64,000 bases of DNA from an uncultured Spartobacteria bacterium (GCA_903868795.1 CAIPWR010000108.1:5589-69588), one strand, 5' to 3'; positions 21,111 to 49,512 are shown, counted from the stretch's first letter. Numbers and translations: made by a program. Notes: generated from the letters alone by a model not told the origin.

Positions 21111-21126
21111 GAGCTTAATCAAGCAA

Positions 21127-21570: not shown

Positions 21571-21573
21571 AGC

Positions 21574-22002: not shown

Positions 22003-22009
22003 GCGATTT

Positions 22010-23628: not shown

Positions 23629-23688
23629 GATGGATGATTATACCAGTGAAAGTAGACACAGGGTGTCCTAGGCCAGAGAAACAAATAA

Positions 23689-28125: not shown

Positions 28126-29316
28126 GTGAGAGGAATGCCCAAGCGTTCCTCTCCCAAATCCTCCTCTTCCCCGAAGCAGAAAAAATCTTCCGTCGTTGAA
28201 AAGACGGTGCCTGTGATGCAGAAAGCTGCAGAAGCTACCAAGGCGAAGGCCAAGCTATCGGCCGAGAAACCATCCTCACAGGGAATCATTCAGGGAAACA
28301 CATCCCGTGATCATATCTATCGGATCTTCGTGATCTTTTCTGAGGTTCAGAATGAGCGTTATCCCACACCAAAAAAGCTGGCAGCTCTTTGCGACGTCAA
28401 AGACAGGACAATCCTTCGTGACATCGATCAGATCAATGGACTTTTGAGCAATTTTGAGACCACTCATGAAAAAGTCGGAAGGGTCGACACCAACGCAATA
28501 GAGTTCGATCACCAGAAAGGTGGGTACCGCCTCAGGCATAAACTCAACCACTTCCCGATCATCCGTGTTGAGGACCCTGATCTGTTAACTCTTCATTTTC
28601 TTCGCCAGTGCCTGGAGCCCTACAAGGACACGGGTATCGGAAAGAGCATGATCGAGTCCTTTAACCGCACCTTCGGTATCCTAACAGGAACGACAGACTG
28701 GAAGCAGTGGGAGCGGATCGTCCACTTCCGGTTTGAGGGTAAGCCCGAGGTTGCCAAGGAGGATGTGAAGCTCTTTGACCTCCTGCACAAGGCTATCAGG
28801 GAAAACCTTCAGGTATCGCTCGACTACAAGCCTGCCAAGGATCCCAAGAGCACACGCATCATCGAGCCTCACTTCCTCTTCATGCGTAACGGTTCCTGGT
28901 ATCTCTATGCCTCAAAGGCCGGCAAGCCCGAGAAGCGTACCCTGAAGTTCGCCCGCATCAGTAATGCCAAACTCACCGGCGAGAAGTTCACCCACGTCCG
29001 GATGGATCCCAAGGACTGCTTTGAATACAGCTTCGGAGTCGTCCCCTCCCAATCCAAGGCTCTCAAGAATCCTGTCGTATTGGAGTTCACCAAGGAGTCC
29101 GCCCAGCGAGTTTCCGAGACACTCTGGCATCCCGAACAAAAAGTGAAGGATCTCCCTGGAGGCGGAGTGCGCCTGGAGCTTCCCTTCGACGAACCGACCT
29201 ACCTGGAACTGAAGCCATGGATCCTCAGCTGGGGTGCCTCAGCCAGAATCATCGGACCGAGAGAACTCAAGGATAAAGTGGCAGAGGATGTGCGGGCGAT
29301 GGCTGCTGGGATTTGA
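28126..29316 (+). CDS. WYL-domain transcriptional regulator
   Basis: Lys/Ser-rich N-terminal tail, an HTH-like YPTPKKLAALCDVKDRTILRDIDQI segment, and the NGSWYLYA WYL signature, followed by a C-terminal extension. Confidence 0.8.
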   Translation: MRGMPKRSSPKSSSSPKQKKSSVVEKTVPVMQKAAEATKAKAKLSAEKPSSQGIIQGNTSRDHIYRIFVIFSEVQNERYPTPKKLAALCDVKDRTILRDIDQINGLLSNFETTHEKVGRVDTNAIEFDHQKGGYRLRHKLNHFPIIRVEDPDLLTLHFLRQCLEPYKDTGIGKSMIESFNRTFGILTGTTDWKQWERIVHFRFEGKPEVAKEDVKLFDLLHKAIRENLQVSLDYKPAKDPKSTRIIEPHFLFMRNGSWYLYASKAGKPEKRTLKFARISNAKLTGEKFTHVRMDPKDCFEYSFGVVPSQSKALKNPVVLEFTKESAQRVSETLWHPEQKVKDLPGGGVRLELPFDEPTYLELKPWILSWGASARIIGPRELKDKVAEDVRAMAAGI

Positions 29317-34502: not shown

Positions 34503-34554
34503 GAGTTGTGTGTAAGAGTTGGTTTGATATGCCGGACAGGGTCAGCGTGCAGGC

Positions 34555-35052: not shown

Positions 35053-35138
35053 AGCGATTATTTCTGTTAATTACGAGCTGAAACGCGGAAAGCGTATGAG
35101 ATCGGGATGACATTTCCTGTCGGTTCCAGATGAGGGGA

Positions 35139-36218
35139 TCATGCGGCGAATCCGATGCGGCAGGGTGTAGGTTCCACATCACGGATGGGCTCCGCCGAAA
35201 AGATCTCCGCAAGGGAATAATCAGTGCGCAAAGGGAGCTCCTTCCCGAGCGAACGTGCGAGGCGGTGGCCATCCTGATGGGAAAGGCGACCGAAGGTGCG
35301 TTGGGCGGTCAGGCGACCGGGGCGGAGAAGTGCCTGATCAATATCGGTCGTGGCACAGTTCATGGTCGCGACGATGTGCAACTGGAGGAAATCCGCCAGA
35401 AGGCCATCGGTGACATTCAGGATCGCGGAGACTTCGGAACGATTGTCCATGGCGCGCGGGGCAAGGGCCGCCTCAGCATCCTCCAGAACCATGACGAGCT
35501 TTTTGCCTTCGGCCTCTTGCTTTTGGCCGTTCCAGAAGTCGATGAAATCTGGATTGGAGACGATCCCGACCGTCGAAGGTGGAACGAAGTAGAAGCGGTG
35601 CGAGGTGCGAAGCTCCACCATCAAATGGCGAAGATAGGAGGTCTTTCCGCAGCCTGGAGTCCCGTCAAGGATCGTCAGCCCGTGGGGGCGCTCGGAAAGG
35701 GCCTTGATAAAACCGGTATGCCAATCGAGGAATTCGGAGCCGTAATTGAGCGCCAGCTTCTCCTCGGCGAGACCGAACTCGGCCTTCATCGTGACTGCAA
35801 AGGTGTTGAGATCCCCGCGGCTCACGCGAAGAAGGTGATAGGTGCCGAACTCCGGCGCCTCCTCCTCGTTTGCCACAAGGTAACGTTGCAGGAGACGACC
35901 CAGCAGATGGCATGCACGAAGAGTTGGTCCGTAGACCTTGAGACACCCTTCGTCAAAATGAATGAAGAGCCCGCGATCCGAGCCGAAGATCACATGGAAC
36001 CAATGCTTCTCCTCTCCCATCCCCCCGCTGTCCGAGCGGAGGATGCGTTTGGAGAGATTTTTGGCCATCGAATTGATGTTCCAGCGTGAATCGCGGCAAC
36101 GTAGGCGGAGTCGGTGAAAGTCACGTGTTCCGTAATGTGAGAGAACCGGTTGAGGTGGGTTTTCCCCCGATTCTTCGAAGGCGTAAGAGGTCGAGACGAT
36201 CTGGTTGATGGTATTCAT
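35139..36218 (-). CDS. BCS1-like classic-clade AAA+ ATPase (paralog 1)
   Basis: GTPGCGKTSY, MVLEDAEAAL and ATMNCATTDIDQALLRPGRL. The C-terminus is CRIGFAA. Confidence 0.85.
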   Translation of the reverse strand: MNTINQIVSTSYAFEESGENPPQPVLSHYGTRDFHRLRLRCRDSRWNINSMAKNLSKRILRSDSGGMGEEKHWFHVIFGSDRGLFIHFDEGCLKVYGPTLRACHLLGRLLQRYLVANEEEAPEFGTYHLLRVSRGDLNTFAVTMKAEFGLAEEKLALNYGSEFLDWHTGFIKALSERPHGLTILDGTPGCGKTSYLRHLMVELRTSHRFYFVPPSTVGIVSNPDFIDFWNGQKQEAEGKKLVMVLEDAEAALAPRAMDNRSEVSAILNVTDGLLADFLQLHIVATMNCATTDIDQALLRPGRLTAQRTFGRLSHQDGHRLARSLGKELPLRTDYSLAEIFSAEPIRDVEPTPCRIGFAA

Positions 36219-36274
36219 GGAATGAGTCGAAGGGTCTGGATTGTCAAAAAACTGGTGGATTCCGGTGCGGGGGA

Positions 36275-36673
36275 TCAGTTGATTCCTGCAGCGCGGAGAG
36301 CATTGATGGTTAGGTCACGGGCACCCTCTTCTTCAGGTACAAACTGCTCCACCACCATGCGGATCACCTGCGCCGGGGTGAGGGGACGGAAAACCCGCAG
36401 ACTGCGGCGATGCTCGCGCAGTGCGGACTCCGATTCCTCGTTGGTCGCCGTGGTCCAGATGCTTCCATCCCAAATCTGGATGATGGTTCGCGCAATGTAG
36501 AATCCATGCTCATCCGAGTGGTGCAGCATGCTGTCCACATCGAGGAAGTTTCCCTCCTCATCCTTGTCTAGGAAGAGTGTGGTGATGTAAGTGTCGTTGG
36601 AGGGGTCGTACGTGGGCTTGGATAAGAGCATATGGGTGATTGGCGTGGGGAGTGAATATGAGTTGATTGACAC
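36275..36673 (-). CDS. hypothetical protein (first gene of the minus-strand arm)
   Basis: 132-aa ORF with a GTG start at 36673. No motif recognised. Confidence 0.45.
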   Translation of the reverse strand: MSINSYSLPTPITHMLLSKPTYDPSNDTYITTLFLDKDEEGNFLDVDSMLHHSDEHGFYIARTIIQIWDGSIWTTATNEESESALREHRRSLRVFRPLTPAQVIRMVVEQFVPEEEGARDLTINALRAAGIN

Positions 36674-36694
36674 ATAAACCCTCCTTAATCACCC

Positions 36695-36709
36695 CGACAC
36701 GGAGTGTCG
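36695..36709. promoter_or_regulatory. palindrome CGACAC-gga-GTGTCG (motif site a)
   Basis: Perfect 6-3-6 inverted repeat in the divergent intergenic region. Confidence 0.4.
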
Positions 36710-36736
36710 TTGAAACATCTGCCGTAAATAACAGAC

Positions 36737-36751
36737 CGACACTCCCTGTCG
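36737..36751. promoter_or_regulatory. palindrome CGACA-ctccc-TGTCG (motif site b)
   Basis: 5-5-5 inverted repeat with the same CGACAC..GTCG core. Confidence 0.4.
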
Positions 36752-36962
36752 TTCGCAGGCTTCTTAAGTATCGGCTATGACATCGAACTGTATTACATCT
36801 GATACTGTCGTGATTTTCTCAATTCCAACGTACTCAAAAAGCCGGAAGCCAGGTAGCGGAGGAAAACGTAGGGAGTCATTTTTTCAAACCCTCTTGACCG
36901 GATCCCATTTTATGCAATCTTCCAAAACGATGAATGAACTGTTGACACGCCGAAGGCGAAGA

Positions 36963-36980
36963 CCCGACACAACCGTCGGG
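36963..36980. promoter_or_regulatory. palindrome CCCGAC-acaacc-GTCGGG (motif site c)
   Basis: Ends 14 nt upstream of the ATG at 36995. The 21-mer cccgacacaaccgtcgggacc is identical to the one at 45507. Confidence 0.45.
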
Positions 36981-36994
36981 ACCCTGCGCTTTAG

Positions 36995-37429
36995 ATGTCC
37001 TCTAATTCATTCCCATGTTTACACAGCGATCTAGTTGATCTTGACGAAGCGGCTTCTGGCCGTGTCGCCCACCTTTCGTTGCCGAATTGTCGGTACGAGA
37101 TTCCTCCCTCCCGCAAGAAACGGAACAAGGAGTGGCACCGCTTGCTTAGCTTACGGCGTGCCATGCGCCTTCAAGACCACCTTAGCAAAAAATCGTACTC
37201 CTTTAGCAAACAATGCAACGAGCGCGGGGCATTGGAGTCCGAGATCGACCATATCGAAAAGTTTCTTGAGGCCCACTTCGCCTGGGATCTGCTCGGTGGA
37301 CGTTTCTTTGCCTGCAAGGAACGTGATCTTTCCTTTGAAAAAGTAGCGATCCTGAAGCGTCTGCATTTGCAGGAAATGCGTGAAACAACCCTTGAGCTTT
37401 TTTCTTCGGGCTACCGGAATTTTTGCTGA
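36995..37429 (+). CDS. hypothetical protein (first gene of the plus-strand arm)
   Basis: 144-aa ATG ORF lying 33 nt upstream of AAA+ paralog 3. Confidence 0.45.
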   Translation: MSSNSFPCLHSDLVDLDEAASGRVAHLSLPNCRYEIPPSRKKRNKEWHRLLSLRRAMRLQDHLSKKSYSFSKQCNERGALESEIDHIEKFLEAHFAWDLLGGRFFACKERDLSFEKVAILKRLHLQEMRETTLELFSSGYRNFC

Positions 37430-37462
37430 GCTCCTGTCTTTGGAAAACCTCAATCTCAACCC

Positions 37463-38644
37463 ATGAAAACGCAGAAACCTTCAAACCCTCTTCATCCACT
37501 CACCACGCTCGATCTTAACGCTAACAAGAAAAGTGTTTCTAGAAGCCGTAGCAAGGTCATGATGAACATCGACCTTGCGGATATCGACTCTTGGGGGGCA
37601 GATGCCTGCACTCCTCCTCTTCCTGTCCTTGCCTTTTATGGTGCTGATCCACTTCATCGGTTTGCTTTGCCGCGTGGACGTTTTGATATTGCCCGCCTGA
37701 CGAAACAATTTGCCTCACGAATCGTACGCTCTGACAGTCGTCCCGGAGGAAAATCCGATTCTGAGGATCAGGATGGTTGGAGGAGCGTCCTCTTCCATTT
37801 CAAGGGATTTGGCGCATGGCTGCACTATGAGCACGGCACGATCAGCACCTATGCGGCGACCCGTCGAAAGGCGATGCTCTTGGCTCTGAAGATGGAACGT
37901 TACCATCTCAAGGATAAAGAGACTGGCGGAAGCTTTGAATTGATCTCCCTGGAGAATGGATCGATCGATACCGAGACAGTCACCCTAGGGATGGAAACAA
38001 TCCTTGAAGATCGGATTCTCTCCCTGCATTACGGCGAGGACTTTCCTAAATGGAGTCGCGATTACGAAAGCATAATCACTTCGAAAAAGAGCGGTTTGAG
38101 TATCCTGGATGGGCCTCCCGGCACGGGTAAGAGTTCTTTCATCCGCCACCTGATGGGGAAGTTAAAGAGCTCGCACAGATTCTTTTTTGTTCCCCCGAGC
38201 GTGATCGATGTCGTGAGCAACTCCTCTTTCGTCAGCTTCTGGAGTCGTCAACAGATGAGTCACAAGGGACGCCAGTTCGTTCTTGTGCTGGAGGACTCCG
38301 AAGCTGCATTGATGAAGAGGGCTGCGGACAACCACTCGCTTGTGAGCAGTCTGCTCTCGGTCACCGATGGCCTTCTGGGGGACTTCATGAAGATCCAGGT
38401 AATCTGCACGATCAATTGCAAATACCAGGACATCGATCCTGCTCTTCGTCGTGCGGGACGCTTGGTTGCTCACCGCCACTTCCCTCGACTGAGCTACAGC
38501 AAGGCCTGCTCTCTCGCTGATAAGATCGGTCGTCCCGTTCCGAGCAGGGAGGAATTCTTCGATGGGGACTTCTCCCTCGCCGAGATCTACAACGCCGACG
38601 CCGCTCCCCAGCAGGAGTCGAAAATCATCGGCTTCGCCGCATAA
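37463..38644 (+). CDS. BCS1-like classic-clade AAA+ ATPase (paralog 3)
   Basis: GPPGTGKSSF, LVLEDSEAAL and CTINCKYQDIDPALRRAGRL. The C-terminus is KIIGFAA. Confidence 0.85.
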   Translation: MKTQKPSNPLHPLTTLDLNANKKSVSRSRSKVMMNIDLADIDSWGADACTPPLPVLAFYGADPLHRFALPRGRFDIARLTKQFASRIVRSDSRPGGKSDSEDQDGWRSVLFHFKGFGAWLHYEHGTISTYAATRRKAMLLALKMERYHLKDKETGGSFELISLENGSIDTETVTLGMETILEDRILSLHYGEDFPKWSRDYESIITSKKSGLSILDGPPGTGKSSFIRHLMGKLKSSHRFFFVPPSVIDVVSNSSFVSFWSRQQMSHKGRQFVLVLEDSEAALMKRAADNHSLVSSLLSVTDGLLGDFMKIQVICTINCKYQDIDPALRRAGRLVAHRHFPRLSYSKACSLADKIGRPVPSREEFFDGDFSLAEIYNADAAPQQESKIIGFAA

Positions 38645-38698
38645 TTAACCCGGCGATCAGCGACTCCTCCTGACGCATCTTCCCTATAGAAAAAGGGC

Positions 38699-39154
38699 AT
38701 GAAAAGAATTCTAATCCTGATCACGATCGTCCTCATTACTGCCACTGCTTCTCCCTCTCTTCATGCCAATCCTGGTTGGAATGGCGGATGGAACGGGGGA
38801 GGGGGCTATTCTCATAGCGGAGGCGGTGGACAATATCACCATGGAGGTGGAGTTCAGCATTATCAGGGCGGCGCCAGGTGCTACCCCGGGTGGAATGGAG
38901 GATACTACCGCCCCACTGCCTGCAGTTACGGTGGTGGCTATGGCCATGGTGGAGGGTACGGCGGAGGTTGTGGTTCTGCAGGAGGATGGTATGGCACCGG
39001 AATTCCGAATGGCCTGGGGTGGGTGCTTTGCGGACTCGGACTCGGAGGTCTCTTGGGAGTGGCTACCGCGCCGATGATCGTTGCTCCCCAGCCCGTCTAT
39101 GCTGCTCCTGCGCCCGGCATCTATTCGGCTGCCTACGGCACGCCGGTTTACTAA
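38699..39154 (+). CDS. secreted Gly/Tyr/Cys-rich protein with glycine-zipper hydrophobic tail (GY-2)
   Basis: Signal peptide ending SLHA|NP, a GGYYRPTACSYGG core, and a GLGWVLCGLGLGGLLGVA segment. Confidence 0.65.
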   Translation: MKRILILITIVLITATASPSLHANPGWNGGWNGGGGYSHSGGGGQYHHGGGVQHYQGGARCYPGWNGGYYRPTACSYGGGYGHGGGYGGGCGSAGGWYGTGIPNGLGWVLCGLGLGGLLGVATAPMIVAPQPVYAAPAPGIYSAAYGTPVY

Positions 39155-39181
39155 GACGTCAAGAAGTCGCGCGGTTTTCGT

Positions 39182-40078
39182 ATGAGTTCATTACCTCCAC
39201 CCATGCAGACAGAGTTGTCATTCCGTGGCGAAGAAGATGATTTCCTTCGCGAGTGGCTTCGTGAACGTCGCAAGACGCGTCTGCAGCGTCTAGGTGAATG
39301 GCTGGAGATGTCGGTCCTTCTTCCAGTTATTCAGGGTCTGCTAGCAGTAATCAGGGTAGCCGAGCCACTCCGAGTTGTCCCGGCACCCGTATGGACGATT
39401 GGCTCCATGCTGATCTCGATCGCAGTCTACTCTTCCAGGATGGGGTGGAAACTGGCACTTGGCTTCATCACCCTCTTGATGATCCACGAGAGCGGGCATC
39501 TGCTTGCGGCACGCTATTACGGGGCGCGCATGAGCGTTCCGATCTTCATCCCCTACATCGGGGCGATTATTGACATGAAGGAGCCGATGCGGAATGCCTG
39601 GGAGGAGGCCGTCTTCGGCATCTCGGGGCCGCTTTTGGGGACCCTTGGAGCCTGCCTCTGCTGGATCACGGCAGGCATCACCGGCAGCTTCTACTTCGCC
39701 GAGCTGGCACTCTTTGGTTTTTTCCTCAATCTCTTCAACCTCATTCCACTTGGCTTTCTTGACGGAGGACACGTCGCAGTCGTGCTCACTCGTTGGCTCT
39801 GGATTCCCGGCTACCTCATGATGGGCGCCTTCGCATGGTATGTGCATTCGCCTGTCGTGATTATCTCGCTTGTCGTCATGCTTCCAATGGTCCTCTCCCT
39901 CTTCCGGAAGAAACCACATAAAGACAATCTCTATGACCGCGTGCGGCTCGGGAAGCGTTTCGCCATGGGTGCCATCTACCTGGCCCTTGTCTCTTTCCTC
40001 GCCTGCTCCATGTCCTGGATTTTCATCAAGGACATCTACCCCGGCCTCAAGCAAGGCAAGAGCCTTATCAAGCTTTAA
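39182..40078 (+). CDS. M50 (site-2-protease-type) membrane metalloprotease (copy 1)
   Basis: HESGHLL (HExxH) and NLFNLIPLGFLDGGH (the NxxPxxxLDG motif). Polytopic. Confidence 0.75.
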   Translation: MSSLPPPMQTELSFRGEEDDFLREWLRERRKTRLQRLGEWLEMSVLLPVIQGLLAVIRVAEPLRVVPAPVWTIGSMLISIAVYSSRMGWKLALGFITLLMIHESGHLLAARYYGARMSVPIFIPYIGAIIDMKEPMRNAWEEAVFGISGPLLGTLGACLCWITAGITGSFYFAELALFGFFLNLFNLIPLGFLDGGHVAVVLTRWLWIPGYLMMGAFAWYVHSPVVIISLVVMLPMVLSLFRKKPHKDNLYDRVRLGKRFAMGAIYLALVSFLACSMSWIFIKDIYPGLKQGKSLIKL

Positions 40079-40104
40079 TCCGACGTGTGCGCCGATCTCA
40101 ATAA

Positions 40105-40458
40105 CTAAGAGTGTATGATCAAGCTGGTTCGATTAATCTCCACGTGCGAAGCGATCTCGAATGCCGACTCGATCGCTTGAAGATTTCGTCGAAGTAAATT
40201 CCTTAGTTCGGAATTTGGAATATTTCCCGTTGAGATTTGGAGAAGTCTCCGGGGGGTGCCTTTCAGAAGCAGGGAAACGACAAAGTCGGAATCCTTGCTC
40301 ACAACGATCAAGCCCTCCGAATCTGCCATTGCTGATATTAAAGTGTCGGGAGTCCTATTGCCCATCTCGAGATCCAAGGTATGGATCACCTCATGCCCCG
40401 CGTTACTGAATACGCTGCGAAGCGTACCGGGCAGTTGGGCATCTAACAGGAACCTCAC
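40105..40458 (-). CDS. DUF5615-like (PIN-like) toxin
   Basis: MRFLLDAQLP...VVSKDSDF pattern. Overlaps the DUF433 gene by 4 nt. Confidence 0.65.
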   Translation of the reverse strand: MRFLLDAQLPGTLRSVFSNAGHEVIHTLDLEMGNRTPDTLISAMADSEGLIVVSKDSDFVVSLLLKGTPRRLLQISTGNIPNSELRNLLRRNLQAIESAFEIASHVEINRTSLIIHS

Positions 40459-40697
40459 GCCGCGATCGGTTCAAGCCGCTTCACACGGCTCATCCTTGCA
40501 GCGTACGCAAATACAGCCTTGAGATCATCGGCTTCAAGATCCGGGTAATCGACAAGGAACTGTTCCACCGAGGTCGGGCCGCTAAGCATTTCCAGCACAA
40601 ACTCCACTGGGTATCGCATCCCCCTTAGGCAAGGCTTGCCATGACAGATGTCAGGATCCGTTGTGATTCGGGCCATTAATTCTGCTTCAGACATCAT
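40455..40697 (-). CDS. DUF433 antitoxin-like protein
   Basis: The ITTDPDICHGKPCLRGMRYPV motif is typical of DUF433. Confidence 0.7.
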   Translation of the reverse strand: MMSEAELMARITTDPDICHGKPCLRGMRYPVEFVLEMLSGPTSVEQFLVDYPDLEADDLKAVFAYAARMSRVKRLEPIAA

Positions 40698-40716
40698 GTT
40701 ATCTTATTCTCTATGA

Positions 40717-40923
40717 CTGGCATTTGCAAGTTCACCGGCATCGTGGAATGGCACCGGTATCCCGAATGGTCTCGGGTGGACCCTCTTTGGCCTCCAGGCA
40801 GTCGCTGCCATTGCCTGCCCACCGGTAGTTGTCGCCCCCCAGCCCGTCTACACAGCTCCCGTCTACATCCCCCCGCAGCCTGTGTATTACCAGCCAGTCT
40901 ACGCCAGCCCCGTCGTTTACTGA
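40717..40923 (+). pseudogene. 3' fragment of a GY-family gene (no start codon)
   Basis: The open frame begins right after a TGA at 40714. It encodes ..SWNGTGIPNGLGWTLFGLQAVAAIACPPVVVAPQPVYTAPVY..VVY*, which matches the C-terminus of GY-2 (WYGTGIPNGLGWVLCGLGLG..VAPQPVYAAP). Confidence 0.6.
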
Positions 40924-40935
40924 GCATTTACCTCC

Positions 40936-41661
40936 TTGTACAAGCGAGCGCCTGAAGGACGAAACCCTGACACACCAATCCGGATGACTCCGTTAATGCA
41001 ACTCTCTGCCATCGAGCGATGGGTCGATCCTCGGCGTATCTTCCACACGGTTGATCTCCTGCCGGAACCTCCAGCGTTGCTGGACATGCGACACCTCCTT
41101 ACGCCCAAGCAGGCCGCGGCTTGCGTGCCCGGCATTTGCCTCACGGTAACACCTCCTGCGGCCACCAAATTCAATGCCCAACTCTGTTTTTGGATCACAC
41201 GTGATGGGAAGAAGTCGGCTGTCTGCTCGTTCGCCGAGGGTGATCAGGAAATCTGTGCCGAATGGTTTCCGGATTTTGAGAGCACCAGCGAGATGACGGA
41301 CTTCATCGAGGAGAGGACGACCCGTTTTCTGCTGGAGCATCTCTTCGGACCGGCTTTGGACGAATGGGCCGCCTCAAAAGGGATACGCTGCGAGGAGTGT
41401 GCCAAGCCGTCGTCAGTTTTTGAGTTGGGGGCCAAGGCTTGCCACTACAGCTCAAGCAGCGGGTTTGATGACTGGCTCTTCATCGAGGTTGAGGACGGGG
41501 AAGGCTATGGCGTCACCCTTGGCATCTCGGGACGCGGAGAGTCAGCCACATTCACCTGTGACGAGGAGGGTTTTCTAGAGTTTGATCTTCGTGCCAACGG
41601 ACTCAAGACCGGCACGGAACTCATCGTCTGGATTGAGGGGGCAATCAGTAAGCACGCCTGA
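40936..41661 (+). CDS. hypothetical protein
   Basis: 241-aa ORF with a TTG start (an alternative ATG lies near 40984). No motif recognised. Confidence 0.45.
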   Translation: MYKRAPEGRNPDTPIRMTPLMQLSAIERWVDPRRIFHTVDLLPEPPALLDMRHLLTPKQAAACVPGICLTVTPPAATKFNAQLCFWITRDGKKSAVCSFAEGDQEICAEWFPDFESTSEMTDFIEERTTRFLLEHLFGPALDEWAASKGIRCEECAKPSSVFELGAKACHYSSSSGFDDWLFIEVEDGEGYGVTLGISGRGESATFTCDEEGFLEFDLRANGLKTGTELIVWIEGAISKHA

Positions 41662-41774
41662 TCTTTTTCCTCACATTTCTGATTTTCCACACGTCTGCTT
41701 CACCTGTCCGAAAGGCTACAGCCTGTATCGCTCAAGCCTTTCGCTTAATTTTATCACCAATTTTTCTCACCCAG

Positions 41775-41789
41775 CGACACCTCTCGTCG
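41775..41789. promoter_or_regulatory. palindrome CGAC-acctctc-GTCG (motif site e)
   Basis: The same CGACAC..GTCG core, about 145 nt upstream of the YbjN-like gene at 41936. Confidence 0.3.
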
Positions 41790-41935
41790 CCGCCCTATGT
41801 CAGGATTGCTTCAACTTCAGAATCGATGAACCCAATCCCCGCATCACCATTCCCCGATACGGGAAGATCCCCCCTTTTATACCTTCCACCTTCTAACCTT
41901 CACCCATTCCCTAACTCCTAGCCCCTATATCACCC

Positions 41936-42682
41936 ATGTCCGACTCCAATACCCCGTTTGAACCCGCAACCGGCCCCGACTTCGGAGGGCCCTTCAAGAC
42001 CGTGTGCGATCACTTCGAGGAACACATGAAATCCGTGAACATCGATTGGGAGAAAAAAACCCTCCGTTTCCAAGTTTATGGCGACCACGCGAACATGGAT
42101 GTCCGGATTCGTGTCTGCGAGGAGGATCATGTCCTCCAGTTCTTCATCACGCTACCCTTCCGGGTGGCGAACGAGAAGATGCGACCCATCGTGGCCGATT
42201 TTGTGGCCAGGGCAAATTGGGGTCTCGTCGTCGGATCGCTGGAATTTGACATGAGGGACGGGGAACTCGTCTACCACATGACGCAGTTGCTTGAGAACCA
42301 CACGATCGGTGATCAACTCATAGGACGTCTGTTTCGCACAGGCATGTCGACGTTCGACAGGTACATCCCCGGCATCTTTCAGATCATTTACGGAGGGAAT
42401 ACCCCGGAAGACGCCGTCTACCTTTGCGAATTGGACATGCATTCCTCCCAAGATGCCGACACCCAGTCCTCATCCGTCGCGCCGAAGAAGAAAAAGCCGG
42501 CACCGCGTCGAAAGAAATCCACCAGCAAGGACGCCGGTAAGGAAAGCGGACAGGAGAGTCATTCCTCTGATTCCGGAAACCATGCAGCTCTCGAATCCCC
42601 AGCACCTCAGGATCCCATGGGTAACAATCAGGCAGAGGATCGTGGTACATTTTCTGCAGAGGCCGAGGAGGATGAATTTTAG
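41936..42682 (+). CDS. YbjN-like protein with Lys-rich/acidic tail (copy 2)
   Basis: FVARANWGLVVGSLEFDMRDGELVYH and YGGNTPEDAVYLCELD. Paralog of 31588..32403. Confidence 0.65.
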   Translation: MSDSNTPFEPATGPDFGGPFKTVCDHFEEHMKSVNIDWEKKTLRFQVYGDHANMDVRIRVCEEDHVLQFFITLPFRVANEKMRPIVADFVARANWGLVVGSLEFDMRDGELVYHMTQLLENHTIGDQLIGRLFRTGMSTFDRYIPGIFQIIYGGNTPEDAVYLCELDMHSSQDADTQSSSVAPKKKKPAPRRKKSTSKDAGKESGQESHSSDSGNHAALESPAPQDPMGNNQAEDRGTFSAEAEEDEF

Positions 42683-43136
42683 ATTTTCCAAAGTGGGGAA
42701 TCTAGCTTTCAGCTCCCCTCATTACTGAAAAGTGCTACAAGCATGACATTCCTCCGATGACGACCGAATCCGTTCTTGAAGAGGATTTGAAGTTTTCCCA
42801 AGCGTATGGTTCGTCTATGCCAACGGATGTAAGGATCGCCCGGGCTTCGATGATAGGCTGGAATTCCGCATCAGCCTTCTGTCCCACCAAGGGAGCGGCG
42901 ACTGGGTGGAGGAGACCCTCACGGAGGCCAAGCAGGTGCTCGATGCCGATTCCTCGCCTGTATCGGATCCAGAGTGCAAGTACTGCGGGTATGTGGAGAA
43001 AGCCTCCCAACTGATGCGTTTAGCCGTTTTTGGATGCTGATTGTTCAATAAAGTGCTACAAAAATGATGATCACTCACAATCAAAAAATAAACACAACTT
43101 CGGTTAAAAAATCCGTTTTCAACTAGAGTCCATATT

Positions 43137-43523
43137 ATGAGGGAAGAATTGCGAATTGAGTTAAGTGAGTTATGTGAAGGCAATCCAGGTGTACGTAAAC
43201 TCATGCTCCATTTTTCCACATCTGAAGATGTGGCTTTTACTTCCATAAGTGATTTGGCAGCTATCGTGGGAAAGGATCCCACTGATTCAGCTGTCCGCGA
43301 AGTTGCCGATGAGCTCCTGCGGTATTTTTCCGATCAGCTAGATCTTGGTAATCCCCGCACACGGGCAAACCTTTTTGAGACTTTCCGTGCTGTCAGGAAT
43401 TCCAGAAGGACTTTTGAAGAAGAGGTCGCCGTTCGCCGAGTAAGATTCTTAAAATATCCGCTGGGTGCTCTGGTGCGGGCGACGGGCCTCCATCATCGGT
43501 TCTGGTCTTTGATTTACCCGTAG
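43137..43523 (+). CDS. hypothetical protein
   Basis: 128-aa ATG ORF following an AT-rich spacer. Confidence 0.4.
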   Translation: MREELRIELSELCEGNPGVRKLMLHFSTSEDVAFTSISDLAAIVGKDPTDSAVREVADELLRYFSDQLDLGNPRTRANLFETFRAVRNSRRTFEEEVAVRRVRFLKYPLGALVRATGLHHRFWSLIYP

Positions 43524-43583
43524 AGGATTCCCCGCTGGATGATGGAGTCTGCCCATCGCTTCAGAACGCGAAGCGCGGCAGTA

Positions 43584-44327
43584 TTACGGAGACGATTTCG
43601 ATGCAGTTGCATTTGCATGAAGGTTTTTCCTGAGGAAGAGGTGTTGAGATCCTGGCATCGGGGCGTAATTTTCCAAGGTCATCCCGTGTGTTCCGAGTGT
43701 GGACAGAAGCCTCTCCTTGGGCCAGCAGCGGATCTGGAACTGATCACGGTAACGGATTCGGGCACCGTTCCGAAGGTCATACGAGTCCTCGGTGTAGCGG
43801 TAGAGTCCGTTGCCGAGTGGCTCGACAACCATGTTGCGCTCCATGCGGCCGGTTTTCTTGGACATGGAGCCAAAAGCCCCTTCGCTTGGGGCATCCAGAA
43901 TCAGAAGTCCTCCGGGTTTCAGCGATCGGGCCATGACGGAGCAGGCAAGTTCCAGCTCATGCTCCTCGGTCGTATAGGCGATGACCGTGAAAAGACAGAG
44001 GGCGAGATCCTGATCTCCCTCGGGAATGAAGCCCTGGATCTTTTGGGTGAAATGATTGATCGGCACCTCTGCATCCCCGGCTTTTCGGAGAAGGACCTGC
44101 ATCATGGATGTGGAGGGTTCGACCGCTGTGACTTGATGGCCCTCGAGTGCAAGAGGTATGGCGACACGTCCCGTCCCGGCACCGAAGTCGATGATTTTTT
44201 TCCTGCCATCAGCGTTCCTGGTGATGTGGGAGAGGGTTTCCCGTGTGAAGCTCCCGTACATCGCACCGAAAGTTTCCTCGTAGAAGAAATCGTAGACCTC
44301 GGCCCAAGGTTCATGAGGTAATGGCAT
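43584..44327 (-). CDS. class I SAM-dependent methyltransferase
   Basis: IIDFGAGTGRVAIPLALEGHQVTAVEPS motif. Confidence 0.75.
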   Translation of the reverse strand: MPLPHEPWAEVYDFFYEETFGAMYGSFTRETLSHITRNADGRKKIIDFGAGTGRVAIPLALEGHQVTAVEPSTSMMQVLLRKAGDAEVPINHFTQKIQGFIPEGDQDLALCLFTVIAYTTEEHELELACSVMARSLKPGGLLILDAPSEGAFGSMSKKTGRMERNMVVEPLGNGLYRYTEDSYDLRNGARIRYRDQFQIRCWPKERLLSTLGTHGMTLENYAPMPGSQHLFLRKNLHANATASKSSP

Positions 44328-44473
44328 GTGAAAAGTACTTCACAAGCCTTTCATGCAAGTCAAAGCATATTTCAGTTGTACTGTTCGCGGAATTGACACC
44401 AATGTTGGATTGCCATGTGTCGAGTCAGTTGAGAGAAGAGGATATCTTTTTGATTTTCTAAAAATTCCATCAA

Positions 44474-45394
44474 ATGACTGTTGAACAACTAGCTTCCATG
44501 TTTCCCCTGATCCCCGACGATTTCCGCGAGGATTTGTCCGGTGGACCTTTCAGGGTGGCCTGGTATGCCTCCGCGGGGAACGATCTCCGCCCTGTCGAAT
44601 TACTGAGCCACACAACGGCCCGTCCACAACCGAGTGAAGGAATCAGGGTATTCCTCTACACCGGCATCAATCCGGACTTGAGGAGGCAACTCTGCCGCCA
44701 ATCATGGCCGGGCCATGTGAGCAGGAATCACTGGATATACATGACCCCGAATGGAACTCCGCGATACGAGAGGCCATACGGGGACGCATTTCTTGCCTTT
44801 CACGCCGATCTGATCGTTTTCACCCCCGAGGTTGATCCCCCCGTGCTTTTCAAGACAAGGCGAGGATGTGATTTTAAGCGAGGGATATTTGGTCCTCTCT
44901 TGGAGATATATCACGATTTCTTCGGGGATCAGGAAGCAACCTACAATGTGGAAATGGACTTCGTTTATTCGATTCAATCGATAAACGGAGTTAATAGCAT
45001 TGGTGATTTCGTTGGCTGTGAAACTGGGCTTGTTATTAAAAATAAACAAAATGGCGATACGCTTGATGTAGCTGGACTGCATTCAAGTCCCCGGGAAATG
45101 GAATACTGCAAAATTCTTTATTCTTTCATCTTTCGTGAATGCAAGAGGGAGCCGAGCCTCCTTCTTCAATCGGAAAGCATGCCTTATCCCTCGGGATACC
45201 ATACTCCCCGGAACATCTACATATTCTTCACCAAGATCTCGGATGAACACTTCAGGGATCAACTCCTTGAAAGAGGCATACGAATCACCGCAGGCTGCTT
45301 TGACTCGAATCACGTGCTCGATCAGTTTCGTGGTCTCCGGATGGACTATCCAAAGGATCTCAGGGATCCCGACCGTGTCATTGATGTGCATTGA
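44474..45394 (+). CDS. hypothetical protein
   Basis: 306-aa ORF. The N-terminal WYASAGNDLRP loosely resembles FYPGCERDASA in 46596..47603. Confidence 0.5.
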   Translation: MTVEQLASMFPLIPDDFREDLSGGPFRVAWYASAGNDLRPVELLSHTTARPQPSEGIRVFLYTGINPDLRRQLCRQSWPGHVSRNHWIYMTPNGTPRYERPYGDAFLAFHADLIVFTPEVDPPVLFKTRRGCDFKRGIFGPLLEIYHDFFGDQEATYNVEMDFVYSIQSINGVNSIGDFVGCETGLVIKNKQNGDTLDVAGLHSSPREMEYCKILYSFIFRECKREPSLLLQSESMPYPSGYHTPRNIYIFFTKISDEHFRDQLLERGIRITAGCFDSNHVLDQFRGLRMDYPKDLRDPDRVIDVH

Positions 45395-45506
45395 TCAAAT
45401 CTAGCAACGAATGCTGTCTTACACCGAAAGATTCCTTGCAATAGCCGGAGGTTCTACGCAACTTGCTCACATGATTCACTTGTACAACACGCGTTTTAGA
45501 TGCGCG

Positions 45507-45524
45507 CCCGACACAACCGTCGGG
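45507..45524. promoter_or_regulatory. palindrome CCCGAC-acaacc-GTCGGG (motif site d)
   Basis: The same 21-mer as at 36963. It ends 16 nt upstream of the GTG start at 45541. Confidence 0.45.
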
Positions 45525-45540
45525 ACCGCCATCTTAACAC

Positions 45541-46254
45541 GTGAACAACACAATCAATGACACAGTAACCCCCGTTTCTAACACGCTCCGCAGTCTGGCG
45601 GGGCGGATCGCGCGGGTCCTCCCGTATTTCAAATCCCTACGCAGCACGGAGTGCAGGGCGAGGCTGCTCTTCAACCCTCTCGAGAATTCCACGAGGTTCT
45701 ACCTCTCGGTGCGTGATGCCATGGAAAGGCTCGCGAAGGCTTCTCAGCCCTCGCTTTTGGAGATCGAGATCATCGATTCCTGCGGCGTCGAACCGGAGCT
45801 CATCCTTGCCTTTCACGATCTCCTCTCGAACCGCCCTTCCCGCGTGCGTCTGCGCGTGGTGACCAGGTTCAACCTGATTGACGGATTGATTCTTTTGCCG
45901 ATCTTGGCAGACGAGGTGCACATCGGTGCTCACTGCTGGTGGGAGTGTGTTGATCCCTTAAAAATCGAAGAGGAAAAAGACTGCATTGATGGAGATGAGT
46001 GGAAGAAACCGGTGCGCCGCGGCGCAGGGTCTACCGACGAGCCGGCTCCTCTGGCAGACCATCGCACGCTTCGTGCACTCCTCGGACAGTATCTGCCCTA
46101 TGCGGAATATTCCGGCCGGCGCGTACCGCTAGCAGCAACGTTGAGGGATTTCGGTCTCATTCCAGGAGATCAAGCCGATTTTCTCACCCGCTGCCTCACT
46201 ATGCCGATGCCCACGACACCTGCTGTCTCTGCACCGTGCAACACTCTGAGGTAA
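45541..46254 (+). CDS. hypothetical protein, possibly a degenerate ClpP/crotonase-fold protein
   Basis: By eye, EIEIIDSCGVEPELILAFHDLL...RVVTRFNLIDGLILLPILAD...HIGAHCWW aligns with the ClpP INSPGG...GxAASMG...MIHQP region, but has no Ser/His at the catalytic positions. Confidence 0.35.
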   Translation: MNNTINDTVTPVSNTLRSLAGRIARVLPYFKSLRSTECRARLLFNPLENSTRFYLSVRDAMERLAKASQPSLLEIEIIDSCGVEPELILAFHDLLSNRPSRVRLRVVTRFNLIDGLILLPILADEVHIGAHCWWECVDPLKIEEEKDCIDGDEWKKPVRRGAGSTDEPAPLADHRTLRALLGQYLPYAEYSGRRVPLAATLRDFGLIPGDQADFLTRCLTMPMPTTPAVSAPCNTLR

Positions 46255-46258
46255 TGCC

Positions 46259-46555
46259 ATGAAGAAACTCATCCTTTGCTCGTTGTTCTCCGTCGGCATC
46301 GCCCATGCCCAGCCCTGCGGTTGGGGTGGCTATGCGCGCCCTTACTCTGGGTGGATCTCCACCACTGGAGCCTGTAACGGTGGCGGCTGTTATGCCCCCG
46401 TGCTCTACGGGAACCCCTATGCCTGCGGTTACTATGCGGCTCCCACCGTTCCGGTCACCATCGGCCCACCCACGGGCATCGGCATCTCGTTCTTCGGCCT
46501 GAACATCCTGTCCATCAACCCGACGCTTCCCCAGGCAACCTTGATTACCCGCTGA
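46259..46555 (+). CDS. secreted Gly/Tyr/Cys-rich protein (GY-3)
   Basis: Signal peptide ending IAHA|QP, then CGWGGYARPYSGW, NGGGCYAP and ACGYYAAP. Confidence 0.6.
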   Translation: MKKLILCSLFSVGIAHAQPCGWGGYARPYSGWISTTGACNGGGCYAPVLYGNPYACGYYAAPTVPVTIGPPTGIGISFFGLNILSINPTLPQATLITR

Positions 46556-46595
46556 ATCCACCATCTCCGCATCCAACCCAACCAAACTTATTCAT

Positions 46596-47603
46596 ATGAC
46601 AAAAGAACTCCCTCAGCAAACCGCGCCCGAATGGCTAGAGAACATGACCCAGGAGAACATCCGCGAAAGGTTTTGCCTCGAGGACATCCTCAAGGGCTCG
46701 CTGTTCTATCCCGGATGTGAACGCGATGCCTCGGCATTCGACATTTTCTCCGGGAACTATCACAGCTTTGTATTCGCGGATCCGACAGTCCGCGAAAGCG
46801 ACCTCACTCTCTGGCTCAACGGAGCCGAAATTCCCCACATCCTTCCACAGCACTACAGGCCCGTCGCTTCGACCCGTCTGAGGGATAGCGACCTTTCTAC
46901 CGTGTTCTGCTGGGATGACAAGGACCGTGAAATCTCCCGCTACGGCAGGGTGGGGAGCGAGTTTGTCCAGCGCTGGCGTCATCTTGCAGGTTCGCCGATC
47001 TTTGCTCGGGACGTCTTTTCAACCGGTGAATCCATCACGAAGATTCTCGATGTAGAGATCGAGCCGTACCTGCGCTTGATGGAGAAATCACGTGATGAGT
47101 TTGCGTCATCAATCACGTTCATCAATCGGCGGTTCCGCTATCTGCAGGAGAAAGCGCGTGCCCTTCAGGCCCAATTCGATCCGTTTTGGAATCCCGAGCC
47201 CCCATATGCCCATTGGTTTGTCATGGAGAAGTGTGATACGGCAGCGGAGGAACTTCCCGCCCGGGTCTCACTGCTCTTCCTCGGCGAGGAAGCCTCACTG
47301 GCCTACCGCGCTCTTTACACGGATCGCGGCATTTCCCCCGCGATGATTCTGATCAAGAACTGGAAGAATGGTCATGGAGACAACCGTCCCTGGAGCCGTG
47401 GGGATGTGGACTCTTCTCCCTTCTACAAGGCTGTGACCGAGTGCAGAGAAGCCCCGATGCCGGACATCGCGTTCAAGATTTACCAAGAGGAACCGGACTG
47501 GGAGGGATGGGAGGAGTTTGCGAAGATCCCTCTGGACGACAACTACCGGGGCGAAGCCCCCCTGAGGCTTCTTCGCCATGCCGGAGGAACTCTGGCAAAA
47601 TGA
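46596..47603 (+). CDS. hypothetical protein
   Basis: 335-aa ORF. Its stop overlaps the next start (ATGA at 47600). Confidence 0.5.
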   Translation: MTKELPQQTAPEWLENMTQENIRERFCLEDILKGSLFYPGCERDASAFDIFSGNYHSFVFADPTVRESDLTLWLNGAEIPHILPQHYRPVASTRLRDSDLSTVFCWDDKDREISRYGRVGSEFVQRWRHLAGSPIFARDVFSTGESITKILDVEIEPYLRLMEKSRDEFASSITFINRRFRYLQEKARALQAQFDPFWNPEPPYAHWFVMEKCDTAAEELPARVSLLFLGEEASLAYRALYTDRGISPAMILIKNWKNGHGDNRPWSRGDVDSSPFYKAVTECREAPMPDIAFKIYQEEPDWEGWEEFAKIPLDDNYRGEAPLRLLRHAGGTLAK

Positions 47604-49335: not shown

Positions 49336-49512
49336 ACGGGAATGATGCCCTGGAACTCCCCCTGCATGGACTTGCCTTCTCGGCTTCCAGCCCTTTTCTG
49401 ACGGGCAAGCCCTCTTGGGGATATGCTCCCTGGATGCTTTTCTGGGAAGCGTCTCTGATTCAGACGACATTTCCTGACGGATTCCTGCGGCAGGCTTTTT
49501 GAACTCAAGCCC

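Follow-up and report, generated by a model that had tools for sequence, protein, structure and literature searches.

The window, as the whole 64-kb stretch of DNA analysed is called here, contains an island in which defence-type genes (DUF2130, Z1, ResIII, methylase) accompany a candidate regulator gene (28216..29316, + strand) and two genes that stand behind leaders of a common type. The candidate regulator is a wHTH-WYL-WCX protein (Pfam WYL 8e-14, WCX 2e-15), and HTH_11 is detected in its orthologue from locus L020. The first leader precedes orf144 (36995..37429, +), which has an internal deletion of ~130 aa relative to its 216–280-aa homologues. The second precedes orf237 (45541..46254, +), an orphan with a GTG start that matches only itself among 5.8 billion proteins; comparison with the divergent gene of locus L032 gives a weak match (28%). 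The ORF at 45541 had been described as ClpP-like, but it has no CLP_protease domain and no match in Pfam, NCBIfam, or PADLOC.

The preliminary description listed five CGACAC-N-GTCG sites, two of them within identical 21-mers 8.5 kb apart. A pattern search of the window returned all five, on the + strand from 36695 to 45522: CGACACggaGTGTCG at 36695, CGACActcccTGTCG at 36737, CGACacctctcGTCG at 41775, and the 21-mer CCCGACACAACCGTCGGGACC at 36963..36983 and 45507..45527, both +. The looser pattern CGAC-N4-9-GTCG has eight matches against 3.8 expected. CCCGACACAACCGTCGGGACC is the sole exact 21-nt direct repeat of the window and has just these two matches even at three or fewer mismatches. A chance origin is unlikely, as had been proposed, with 0 of 100 shuffles giving any match.

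The five sites do not appear to be a single element. They divide into a 15-bp box (class I) and a separate, duplicated stem-loop leader that carries the 21-mer (class II). Of the two identities previously offered for the motif, operator suits the 15-mers and 5'-UTR hairpin the 21-mer, because the hexamer and spacing of the former differ from the stem-loop leader properties of the latter. Compared with class I, the 21-mer has a spacer 1 nt shorter, lacks a -10-like hexamer, and lies downstream of a sigma70-like promoter within a conserved stem-loop leader. From these sequence features, class I looks like the promoter or operator of a WYL-type stress regulator, placed before many verrucomicrobial island genes, and we read class II as an RNA-type translational control element.

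The class I consensus is the 15-mer cGACA-N5-TGTCg, which points toward the downstream gene. At least eight sites of the GACA-N5-TGTC family occur in the window, all within 23.6–49.5 kb, around the WYL gene; beyond those at 36695, 36737, and 41775 they lie at 23654, 35108, 46214, and 49465, with a degenerate copy at 38661. Box GGACACCCTGTGTCT (23654..23668, -) is followed by 11 nt, TATAAT, 8 nt, and the ATG of a 242-aa gene heading an operon with DUF3293, S24 peptidase, and UmuC-like polymerase genes. Genes for Gly/Tyr-rich products of 165, 151, and 98 aa are preceded by CGACAGGAAATGTCA (35108..35122, -; then TACGCT), the degenerate CGACTCCTCCTGACG (38661..38675, +; then TAGAAA; 23 nt to the ATG), and CGACACCTGCTGTCT (46214..46228, +; then AACACT; gene at 46259), respectively. 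The variants CGACACCTCTCGTCG (41775..41789, +; then CAGGAT) and CGACATTTCCTGACG (49465..49479, +; then CAGGCT) stand upstream of a YbjN-family gene at 41936 and orf213 at 49513. The other two boxes form a 42-bp pair, of which the left, CGACACTCCGTGTCG (36695..36709, -; then GAGGGT), faces the orf132 gene, and the right, CGACACTCCCTGTCG (36737..36751, +), stands ~157 nt before P1, the predicted promoter of leader 1, and is without a -10-like hexamer.

Across 151 kb (window and related loci), the GACA-N5-TGTC core occurs 38 times against 2.5 ± 1.3 expected, a count that overstates independence because the loci are phylogenetically related. Its spacing is strict (38 sites with N5, 5 with N4, none with N6). 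Allowing one mismatch gives 36 sites (5.4 ± 2.1 expected). Of 28 mismatches, 24 affect the outer positions, 1 and 15, and G2, A3, C4, A5, and C14 are never affected. Exact 42-bp pairs of boxes recur in eight loci, with spacers that differ in sequence. Of 76 site-orientations, 21 have an nAnnnT hexamer beginning 12 nt after GTC, a sharp peak compared with 0–12 (mostly 1–5) at other offsets, and all 21 face the downstream gene, none being antisense. The ATG often follows this hexamer by 6–8 nt, and the distance from box to AAA-gene ATG is 23–24 nt in nine loci. By inspection of the sequence, the place of a -35 hexamer coincides with the centre of the box, where A-CTCCC, A-TTTCC, and the like bear no resemblance to TTGACA. 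The motif is non-random and island-confined, and it occupies the same positions in related metagenomic loci, in line with the earlier proposal that separate island operons are tied into an apparent single regulon. By our own tally, the centre is pyrimidine-rich on the sense strand at 31 of 33 strand-assignable sites, a directionality that a symmetric dimer does not explain.

The WYL protein, already named as a candidate regulator, is a well-founded choice. Its best solved relatives are DriD and PafBC, and DriD is the closest solved structure to its WYL-WCX region. PafBC recognizes the motif tGTCgg(N10)tA(N3)T, its -26 element being read at GTC by R46/R50 (PMC8635444). In the DriD site ATACGACAGTTACTGTCGTAT, G2, C4, G12, and C14 are critical and positions 1 and 15 tolerant (PMC10853764). 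SiwR contacts a palindrome between -35 and -10 through R38/R42 (PMC10693628). GTC/GAC triplets of this kind are read by an RxxxR arginine pair in PafB, DriD, and SiwR. The window regulator contains the sequence DRTILRD; its N-terminal HTH is not alignable to DriD, so that the RxxxR correspondence is a pattern match only.

Class I shares with the promoters of mycobacterial PafBC, known for 'sigma adaptation', a GTC exactly 12 nt before the -10 hexamer and the lack of a -35 element. Both systems would have a WYL-domain regulator, many leaderless transcripts, and a translesion-polymerase operon among the targets. At promoters of the PafBC/SiwR type, transcription depends on the regulator and begins about 7 nt after the hexamer. 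PafBC, however, is a heterodimer that reads a single half-site and needs RNA polymerase in order to bind, whereas the class I box, a complete palindrome, has GTC/GAC triplets in both halves and so implies a homodimer. The phylum (Verrucomicrobiota) and the target genes differ as well. The Caulobacter DriD operator (ATACGAC-N7-GTCGTAT; crystallised site CGACA-GTTAC-TGTCG) has arms identical to those of class I (CGACA...TGTCG), the same 7-nt gap between CGAC and GTCG, and the same pattern of fixed (G2/C4/G12/C14) and loose (1/15) positions. DriD sites end at -36 before a normal -35, have AT-rich centres and ATA/TAT flanks, and include one in the driD promoter; in contrast, the class I box extends over the -35 position, its directional centre is rich in C and T, and, unlike in DriD autoregulation, the WYL gene promoter has none, no box being present before this gene in any of four lineages. 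DriD-type operators are bound by a wHTH-WYL-WCX homodimer that ssDNA stimulates, and the candidate regulator has the same domain architecture. Locus L019 has class I boxes and no WYL gene within 10 kb. SiwR, a homodimeric WYL activator of M. smegmatis, resembles the present system in its palindrome between -35 and -10, functional -26 region, RxxxR pair in the recognition helix (here a pattern match), and adjacent target genes; it differs in serving one operon through a 19-bp site with GGA at -26, where many promoters and a different box are found here. With BrxR/CapW-type WYL repressors there is a likeness in the setting, a WYL regulator in an island with defence-type genes and several boxes per island, but the boxes of BrxR, pairs of 11-bp repeats separated by 5 bp, lie downstream of the promoter and repress, and there is no sequence resemblance.

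In class II, the 21-mer is predicted to form an apical hairpin (CCCGAC/ACAACC/GTCGGG) plus ACC at the top of a ~56-nt stem-loop, which is part of a leader of 76 nt. The reported 14–16-nt spacing agrees with the 14 nt from the end of the hairpin stem to ATG 36995 and the 16 nt to GTG 45541. Leader copy 1 (36925..37000, +) and copy 2 (45469..45544, +; a ~56-nt imperfect palindrome) were delineated by RNAalifold, pair counts, and the covariance model R1 (95.9 bits for copy 1). When searched with R1, the window gives exactly two copies, the next best hit having E=0.77; each related locus with orf144 gives one, at constant position, and loci without orf144 give none. A single copy of the leader precedes each orf144 homologue of the six lineages; it is duplicated before orf237, and is nearly invariant across lineages whose AAA proteins are just 60–80% identical. 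Between the two window copies the tip is 21/21 identical and the flanks 37%; the 75 nt upstream match at 28/75 positions in fixed register, against a background of 18.7 ± 3.8. The tip has CGACAC...GTCG in common with class I and may thus also have a role as DNA.

RNAalifold predicts 19 pairs, 7 of which have changes on both sides, compared with 1.6 ± 1.0 in shuffles (0/500) and at most 3 in slid controls, although these changes come mostly from copy 2 alone and the structure derives from the same alignment. G-U pairs occur on the sense strand only. All of the 8 leaders can pair the hairpin stem of the 21-mer, one position of which varies among C-G, U-G, and U-A. Unlike the variable class I centres, the loop ACAACC and the 3' ACC show no change. 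In the predicted structure the start codon is paired in both copies: the outer helix of copy 1 (GACA 36944-47/UGUC 36996-99) takes in the U and G of the orf144 AUG, and that of copy 2 (CACG 45488-91/CGUG 45540-43) the entire GUG of orf237. With the core held fixed, 7/2000 flank shuffles fold as well as the copy 2 stem, which is therefore significant; for copy 1 the figure is 810/2000, and its extended stem does not stand out from the shuffles. A search of the whole window gave no Rfam hit at gathering score, and permissive scans yielded only sub-threshold matches (E ~1–2).

Leader 1 has a sigma70-like promoter, P1 (36894..36921, +; TTGACC, 15–16 nt, (TGc)CAATCT/AATCTT), which is predicted from the sequence and conserved in all orthologues (alignment A1). 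It lies 44 nt upstream of the 21-mer element, which falls ~35 nt downstream of the predicted start site of the P1-type promoter. Leader 2 has a promoter-like block (45436..45464, +; TTGCAA, 17 nt, CAACTT, then 6 nt to ATG 45471). Hypothetical small ORF 1 (34 codons, MNELLTRRRRRPDTTVGTLRFRC...; 36930..37034, +) spans the 21-mer and overlaps the orf144 start; hypothetical small ORF 2 (29 codons, MIHLYNTRFRCAPDTTVGTAILTREQHNQ; 45471..45560, +) would read the 21-mer in the frame used by small ORF 1 and extends over the GTG of orf237. Both would terminate 17–37 nt inside the downstream gene, and the ORF through the 21-mer is probably leaderless. The frame of small ORF 1 is enriched in synonymous changes (synonymous:non-synonymous 7:9, against 4:13 and 3:16 in the other frames), although the signal is weak.

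These features are together accounted for if class I boxes mark WYL-dependent promoters and class II is a stem-loop gating the orf144 and orf237 starts, a reading to which we assign a probability of roughly 0.55. For the binding protein, the sense of regulation (activation or repression), the start sites, and translation of the small ORFs we infer the following. Class I would supply the upstream half of a promoter that depends on a regulator and has the layout cGACA-N5-TGTCn, 11 nt, nAnnnT, and often 6–8 nt to an ATG. A dimer of the island wHTH-WYL-WCX regulator would read the inverted GTC/GAC triplets at about -39 to -25 and probably license RNA polymerase, because the box takes the place of the -35 and no -35 element is present there; the boxes could instead be repressor sites. 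Transcription would start at or adjoining the start codon, giving leaderless mRNAs. Operons containing the AAA-ATPase, Gly/Tyr-rich peptide, M50 protease, YbjN, and UmuC genes would then form one stress-type regulon. In class II, the 21-mer would be the invariant tip of a stem-loop in a transcript from the separate sigma70-like promoter, with the stem base pairing the AUG of orf144 or the GUG of orf237. The short ORF would begin at the predicted 5' end of the transcript and run through the hairpin, and its translation, or a factor on the invariant tip, would set the exposure of the downstream start codon.

Leader peptides or uORFs control stem-loops that hide a downstream start site in ermC, secM-secA, and mifM-yidC2. 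Class II, as predicted, would resemble these in that a short ORF traverses a stem-loop and the foot of that stem-loop occludes the start region of the following gene, and in the joint conservation of peptide and structure; it differs in having no known stalling motif or inducer, in its predicted leaderless mRNA, in the short ORF ending inside the downstream gene, and in matching no Rfam family. It is interesting to speculate that the two classes jointly represent a verrucomicrobial palindromic, homodimer-type 'sigma adaptation' and an undescribed leaderless uORF/stem-loop riboregulator, a tentative and rather doubtful proposal. A WYL regulator would then take over the role of the -35 contact at a whole set of leaderless promoters, from which a translesion polymerase operon and an uncharacterised module of AAA ATPase, secreted Gly/Tyr-rich peptide, and M50 protease would be expressed. 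In the same regulon, the riboregulator, with its invariant 21-nt tip, would control whether two unrelated genes are translated.

Alternatively, all sites may belong to one DNA operator family, the 21-mer being a tighter operator of the same WYL regulator, shorter by 1 nt (GAC-N6-GTC), that serves as a roadblock or repressor site just before the orf144 and orf237 starts, with the stem-loop a by-product of the palindrome. CCGACAC and GTCG are common to the 21-mer tip and the 15-mers, the sole stem change (C-G to T-A) is at DriD-tolerant positions, and the conserved 21-bp block has the length of the DriD footprint. DriD-type sites have moreover been searched for with gaps of 6 or 7, and they lie ~17 nt before start codons (PMC10853764). 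We nevertheless consider a single family unlikely. Class I spacing is strict, the N4 form (GACA-N4-YGTC outside coding DNA) is confined to the orf144/orf237 leaders, and these have no nAnnnT at the class I distance. The invariant loop and 3' ACC also contrast with the variable class I centres, the outer helices covary, pair start codons, and use G-U pairs, and the element follows the predicted start site of a conserved promoter.

The converse, that the 15-mers too act as RNA, would make them short hairpins (stem GACA/UGUC, pyrimidine-rich loop) before each cistron, bound by an RNA-binding protein or cut by a processing enzyme. Their directionality, fixed distance to start codons, occurrence in many intercistronic gaps, and CCUCC-like loops would suit such a role, but the hexamer 12 nt downstream with an ATG 6–8 nt further on would place the box upstream of the transcript. 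The arms do not covary but are invariant, and where a variant such as TGACG disrupts pairing no compensating change is seen; in addition, paired boxes keep a constant 42-bp spacing, and a 4–5-bp stem would be marginally stable. At window position 35108 and its orthologous site in L021 (8148) the loop is antisense, yet the -10-like hexamer runs in the gene direction. Hairpin function of the 15-mers thus appears improbable.

Equally slim is the chance that the 21-mer is kept solely for encoding PDTTVGT of a small functional peptide, with hairpin and binding site irrelevant. An ORF in the same frame is present in both copies and all orthologues, the window and L029 peptides are 20/21 identical with 4/5 nucleotide changes synonymous, and synonymous codon pairs flank the 21-mer between paralogues. 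A peptide constraint does not, however, explain why all seven third positions are identical between paralogues of 37% flank identity, why orthologues have far fewer synonymous changes than protein divergence would give, or why compensatory changes, one of them non-synonymous (GGG to AGG), preserve pairing.

A REP-like or mobile dispersed repeat, or chance similarity, might be suggested by a short GC-rich intergenic palindrome seen in a genome view limited to the 64-kb window, but is extremely improbable given a 21-mer repeat beyond chance with two copies and no further one in 64 kb, a single copy per related locus at constant position, always before an orf144 homologue, and public scans that gave only orthologues and a chance-level number of unrelated hits. 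The 18-mer core gave 12 hits across 596 Gb of genomes against ~17 estimated by chance, one of them a true orthologue (L008 = L046), and of the 15 hits of a metagenome scan, 4 are leaders of orthologues and the other 11 fall in unrelated coding DNA of high GC content.

Each 21-mer had also been said to be accompanied by a GCGYTTTAGATG box. Both boxes are real and are the only exact matches to GCGYTTTAGATG in the window; the second is at 45491-45502 as given, and the first is at 36986-36997, one base from the reported 36985. The first, GCGCTTTAGATG (36986..36997, +), includes the ATG of orf144 as well as the 3' arm of the middle helix, and the second, GCGTTTTAGATG (45491..45502, +), is the 5' arm of the long copy 2 palindrome. 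The ATG of the GCGTTTTAGATG box opens a 14-codon ORF, the TGA of which overlaps GTG 45541.

The identical 21-mer CCCGACACAACCGTCGGGACC lies on the + strand at 36963-36983 and 45507-45527, as first described, and is the sole exact 21-nt direct repeat of the window. No third match was found in the window with up to three mismatches allowed, and shuffles gave none. The sequences at 36695, 36737 and 41775 also read as reported, and the two GCGYTTTAGATG boxes exist (36986-36997 and 45491-45502). The five sites had been taken as instances of a single motif; comparison with related loci splits them instead into a 15-bp box, cGACA-N5-TGTCg (class I), and the 21-mer, which would form the tip of a predicted stem-loop leader (class II). 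Leader copy 1 precedes orf144 (36995-37429, +) and copy 2 precedes orf237 (45541-46254, +). The latter ORF had been called ClpP-like, a label that is withdrawn: it is without a Pfam, NCBIfam or PADLOC match and, searched against 5.8 billion proteins, remains an orphan. A prophage or ClpP reading is out, with all three databases blank and AAA ATPases and M50 proteases as neighbors.

In 151 kb, made up of the window and ten related loci that share ancestry with it, the class I core GACA-N5-TGTC was counted 38 times against 2.5 ± 1.3 expected. Spacing is strict, with five N4 and no N6 occurrences. With one mismatch allowed, 36 sites are found against 5.4 ± 2.1 expected; 24 of 28 mismatches fall at outer positions 1 and 15, and none at G2, A3, C4, A5, or C14. 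Excesses of GACA-N4 and GACA-N10 come down to coding or chance matches. Beyond the three class I sites already reported, boxes were located at 23654, 35108, 46214, and 49465, with a degenerate copy at 38661. All window sites fall within 23.6-49.5 kb, around the gene for a wHTH-WYL-WCX regulator (28216-29316, +). In eight loci, boxes are paired at exactly 42 bp in the divergent intergenic region, with 27-nt spacers unlike in sequence.

The boxes are directional. By our own tally, 31 of 33 strand-assignable sites have the pyrimidine-rich center on the downstream gene's sense strand, and the distance from box end to AAA start codon is 23-24 nt in nine loci. In 21 site-orientations, all of them (21/21) toward the gene, a hexamer nAnnnT follows the C of GTC at an offset of exactly 12 nt; the counts at other offsets are 0-12, mostly 1-5. 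Examples of these -10-like hexamers are TATAAT at 23654 (-), TACGCT at 35108 (-), and AACACT at 46214. Since the hexamer commonly lies 6-8 nt before ATG, transcription is predicted to begin at the start codon itself, and class I genes would probably give leaderless mRNAs. In keeping with this, these genes lack Shine-Dalgarno sequences, and the start is typically CCC-ATG. The right-hand pair boxes, which now precede the orf144 leader (36737 with its orthologues), have no such hexamer. At 37430-37462, the AAA gene of the window keeps only the right half of a class I box (ctCCTGTCT); a CAATCT hexamer is still there, and the ATG lies at an unchanged distance.

Characterized WYL regulators include those of Actinobacteria (PafBC, SiwR), Caulobacter (DriD), and enterobacterial defense islands (BrxR, CapW). 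The PafBC promoter motif is tGTCgg(N10)tA(N3)T, in which R46/R50 read the GTC triplet of the -26 element and a -35 element is lacking (PMC8635444); its GTC-to-hexamer distance is identical to that of class I, 12 nt. The DriD operator consensus is ATACGAC(N7)GTCGTAT, and the crystallized site ATACGACAGTTACTGTCGTAT contains CGACA-N5-TGTCG, with G2, C4, G12, and C14 critical and positions 1/15 tolerant (PMC10853764), a pattern that is also that of the class I mismatches. SiwR, a homodimeric WYL activator, binds a palindrome between -35 and -10 and requires the -26 region and R38/R42 (PMC10693628). The class I box combines the DriD palindrome with PafBC promoter geometry. In the window regulator, the WYL and WCX domains score above threshold (an orthologue has HTH_11), the best solved relatives are DriD and PafBC, and the recognition-helix region reads DRTILRD, an RxxxR pattern. 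Because of these shared features, class I is read as a set of WYL-dependent promoter boxes, activating or repressing, and would be a variant of WYL-type promoters not described before. The preliminary description had proposed one regulon with the WYL protein as candidate regulator; motif statistics, conservation and published precedents argue for both. The regulator HTH gave no alignment to DriD by phmmer or profile, and one related locus has class I boxes but no WYL gene nearby. DriD-style autoregulation was rejected, there being no class I box upstream of the WYL gene. That region (27975-28125; positions 2500-2656 in the related locus L020) has conserved blocks of its own, GGTTGGCACC and GGAATTCCTGA, with CACGCTAGGTGAG just before ATG, and a short stem between blocks whose sequence differs among species.

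The locus is of interest as a candidate WYL regulon of Verrucomicrobiota. It is defined by sequence and comes with promoters, rules of spacing, starts that are probably leaderless, and a candidate for the regulator; the pairing of DriD palindrome and PafBC geometry makes sigma adaptation outside Actinobacteria directly testable. Should this reading be wrong, it would still be a clean case of phylogenetic footprinting in uncultured bacteria, of local interest only.

The verrucomicrobial LexA box is TGTTC-N4-GAACA; no such sequence was seen near 23654. The 23654 box, with its perfect TATAAT hexamer, heads an operon (19836-23668, -) encoding a 242-aa protein of no assigned family, DUF3293, an S24 (UmuD-like) peptidase, a 147-aa protein, and a UmuC-like polymerase. 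Since a class I box heads these S24 peptidase and polymerase genes, there are hints that the regulon may respond to DNA damage. In L020 a class I box stands before an unrelated Metallophos gene, which likewise precedes DUF3293. Assignment of the 242-aa gene itself to Metallophos was wrong, as its product does not resemble the L020 protein.

Despite the common CGACAC...GTCG, the 21-mer is, judged by its sequence, no class I box, because GACA-N4-YGTC outside coding DNA is confined to these leaders and the class I hexamer rule does not hold there. A metagenome scan for CCYGACACAACCGTCRGGMC returned 15 matches, comprising 11 unrelated GC-rich coding sequences and four orthologous loci, in which the hairpin lies 14 nt before the ATG of the orf144 homologue. 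A genome scan gave 12 single matches, where approximately 17 were estimated to arise by chance in so large a collection. Among the 12 is a single true orthologue, on a contig labeled Syntrophorhabdaceae. This 2.8-kb contig (CAYMTB010000381.1, our L008, the same as L046) carries the orthologous leader, an orf144 homologue, and an AAA gene, and is probably verrucomicrobial and mis-binned. An approximately 110-nt block (TTGACC, 15-16 nt, (TG)CAATCTT, leader, hairpin) is nearly invariant in alignments among lineages whose AAA proteins are merely 60-80% identical. Upstream of copy 2 lies a diverged paralogue of this block, identical at 28 of 75 positions in fixed register against a background of 18.7 ± 3.8; its GCAAY-to-hairpin distance is 44 nt, as in copy 1, and only the 21-mer is intact. 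A covariance model picked out just the two leaders in the window (E = 0.77 for the next candidate), exactly one per orf144-bearing locus, and none in loci without orf144, a distribution that is neither REP-like nor that of an artefact. A search for more distant leaders found none, the orf144 family comprising four protein clusters only and new loci duplicating known lineages. Class II would be a leader not described before, limited to a narrow clade.

Several known identities for the leader were rejected. CsrA-like GGA hairpins would be confined to the antisense strand, an intrinsic terminator is out as the hairpin has no following U-tract, spacings are unsuitable for a Sigma54 or ECF promoter, and for an integron attC-like site the GTT...AAC order runs the wrong way round and an integrase is missing. 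RNAalifold predicted 19 pairs across eight leaders. All eight have the apical stem paired, with one pair of it varying between C-G, U-G (a strain variant), and U-A, and G-U pairs form on the sense strand only. Seven pairs are changed on both sides, most of them through copy 2, against 1.6 ± 1.0 in shuffles (0/500) and at most three in slid controls. In copy 1 the outermost predicted helix, GACA 36944-47 with UGUC 36996-99, takes in the U and G of the AUG of orf144; in copy 2 its counterpart, CACG 45488-91 with CGUG 45540-43, pairs the whole orf237 GUG. With the core fixed and flanks shuffled, the extended stem is significant for copy 2 (7/2000) and not for copy 1 (810/2000). A different basal stem in the related locus L027 was wrongly assigned; its upstream sequence is a normal leader.

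Each copy has an ATG 6-9 nt past the -10-like hexamer of the leader (36930 and 45471), which opens a small ORF of 34 codons in copy 1 and 29 in copy 2 that overlaps the downstream start. Both read the 21-mer in the same frame, as PDTTVGT, and the GCGYTTTAGATG box as RFRC, with synonymous differences. Synonymous to non-synonymous changes among orthologues number 7:9 in this frame versus 4:13 and 3:16 in the others; the window and L029 peptides are identical at 20 of 21 residues, with four of five nucleotide changes synonymous. Coding constraint by itself falls far short of explaining how strongly third positions are conserved, so selection must also act on this region at the nucleotide level. 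The most likely mechanism would be coupling of a leaderless uORF to the stem-loop. The 21-mer leader is a candidate, compact in size, for a translational control element of a new kind.

The orf144 family has a predicted structure of pLDDT 36.7, too low to use. The window orf144 lacks approximately 130 central residues conserved in 216-280-aa homologues (MGHWRFVKVT...FGHERHYHTEEWIPNG), and may be a decayed copy, though its leader is intact. A distant orf237 homologue (28% identity) is found in two lineages (L032 5557-6009; L027 108-743), divergent from the orf144 operon with the 42-bp box pair in common; unlike it, the window orf237 has its own leader copy.

The island encodes three AAA ATPase paralogues (38-41% mutual identity, all ending ...GFAA), two paralogous M50 peptidases (49% identical), YbjN-family and HAD proteins, the WYL regulator, and small Gly/Tyr-rich proteins with signal peptides (34555-35052, -; 38699-39154, +; 46259-46555, +), two of whose three genes lie directly downstream of an AAA gene. 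DUF2130, Z1, ResIII, and methylase genes follow downstream. Related metagenomic loci, with AAA proteins 56-87% identical, show the same order: WYL, HAD, YbjN, small gene, then divergent AAA and M50. Gut-type metagenome contigs L013-L018 are identical to the window, and the names given to AAA homologues assign the lineage to Verrucomicrobiota. AAA/Gly-Tyr/M50 modules are repeated within 33393-40078 and 45541-49335 and kept across related Verrucomicrobiota. PADLOC, Pfam, and NCBIfam assign no function to the module as a system, and the locus offers a functional handle on this conserved, unannotated combination of AAA ATPase, Gly/Tyr-rich secreted peptide, M50 protease, and YbjN.

At 43539-44327 a 260-aa ORF (+) overlaps a 247-aa ORF (-), and is probably spurious, since the latter has a methyltransferase Pfam match. 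A toxin-antitoxin-type pair, DUF433 and PIN-like DUF5615 (40105-40697, -), separates the first M50 gene from the module that follows, and is absent from the equivalent position in the related loci examined. In a related lake metagenome contig (L043, 9038-12298), the M50 gene is followed downstream by genes for Sel1, Prim-Pol, and reverse transcriptase (RVT_1), suggesting that defense or mobile cargo is drawn to this spot.
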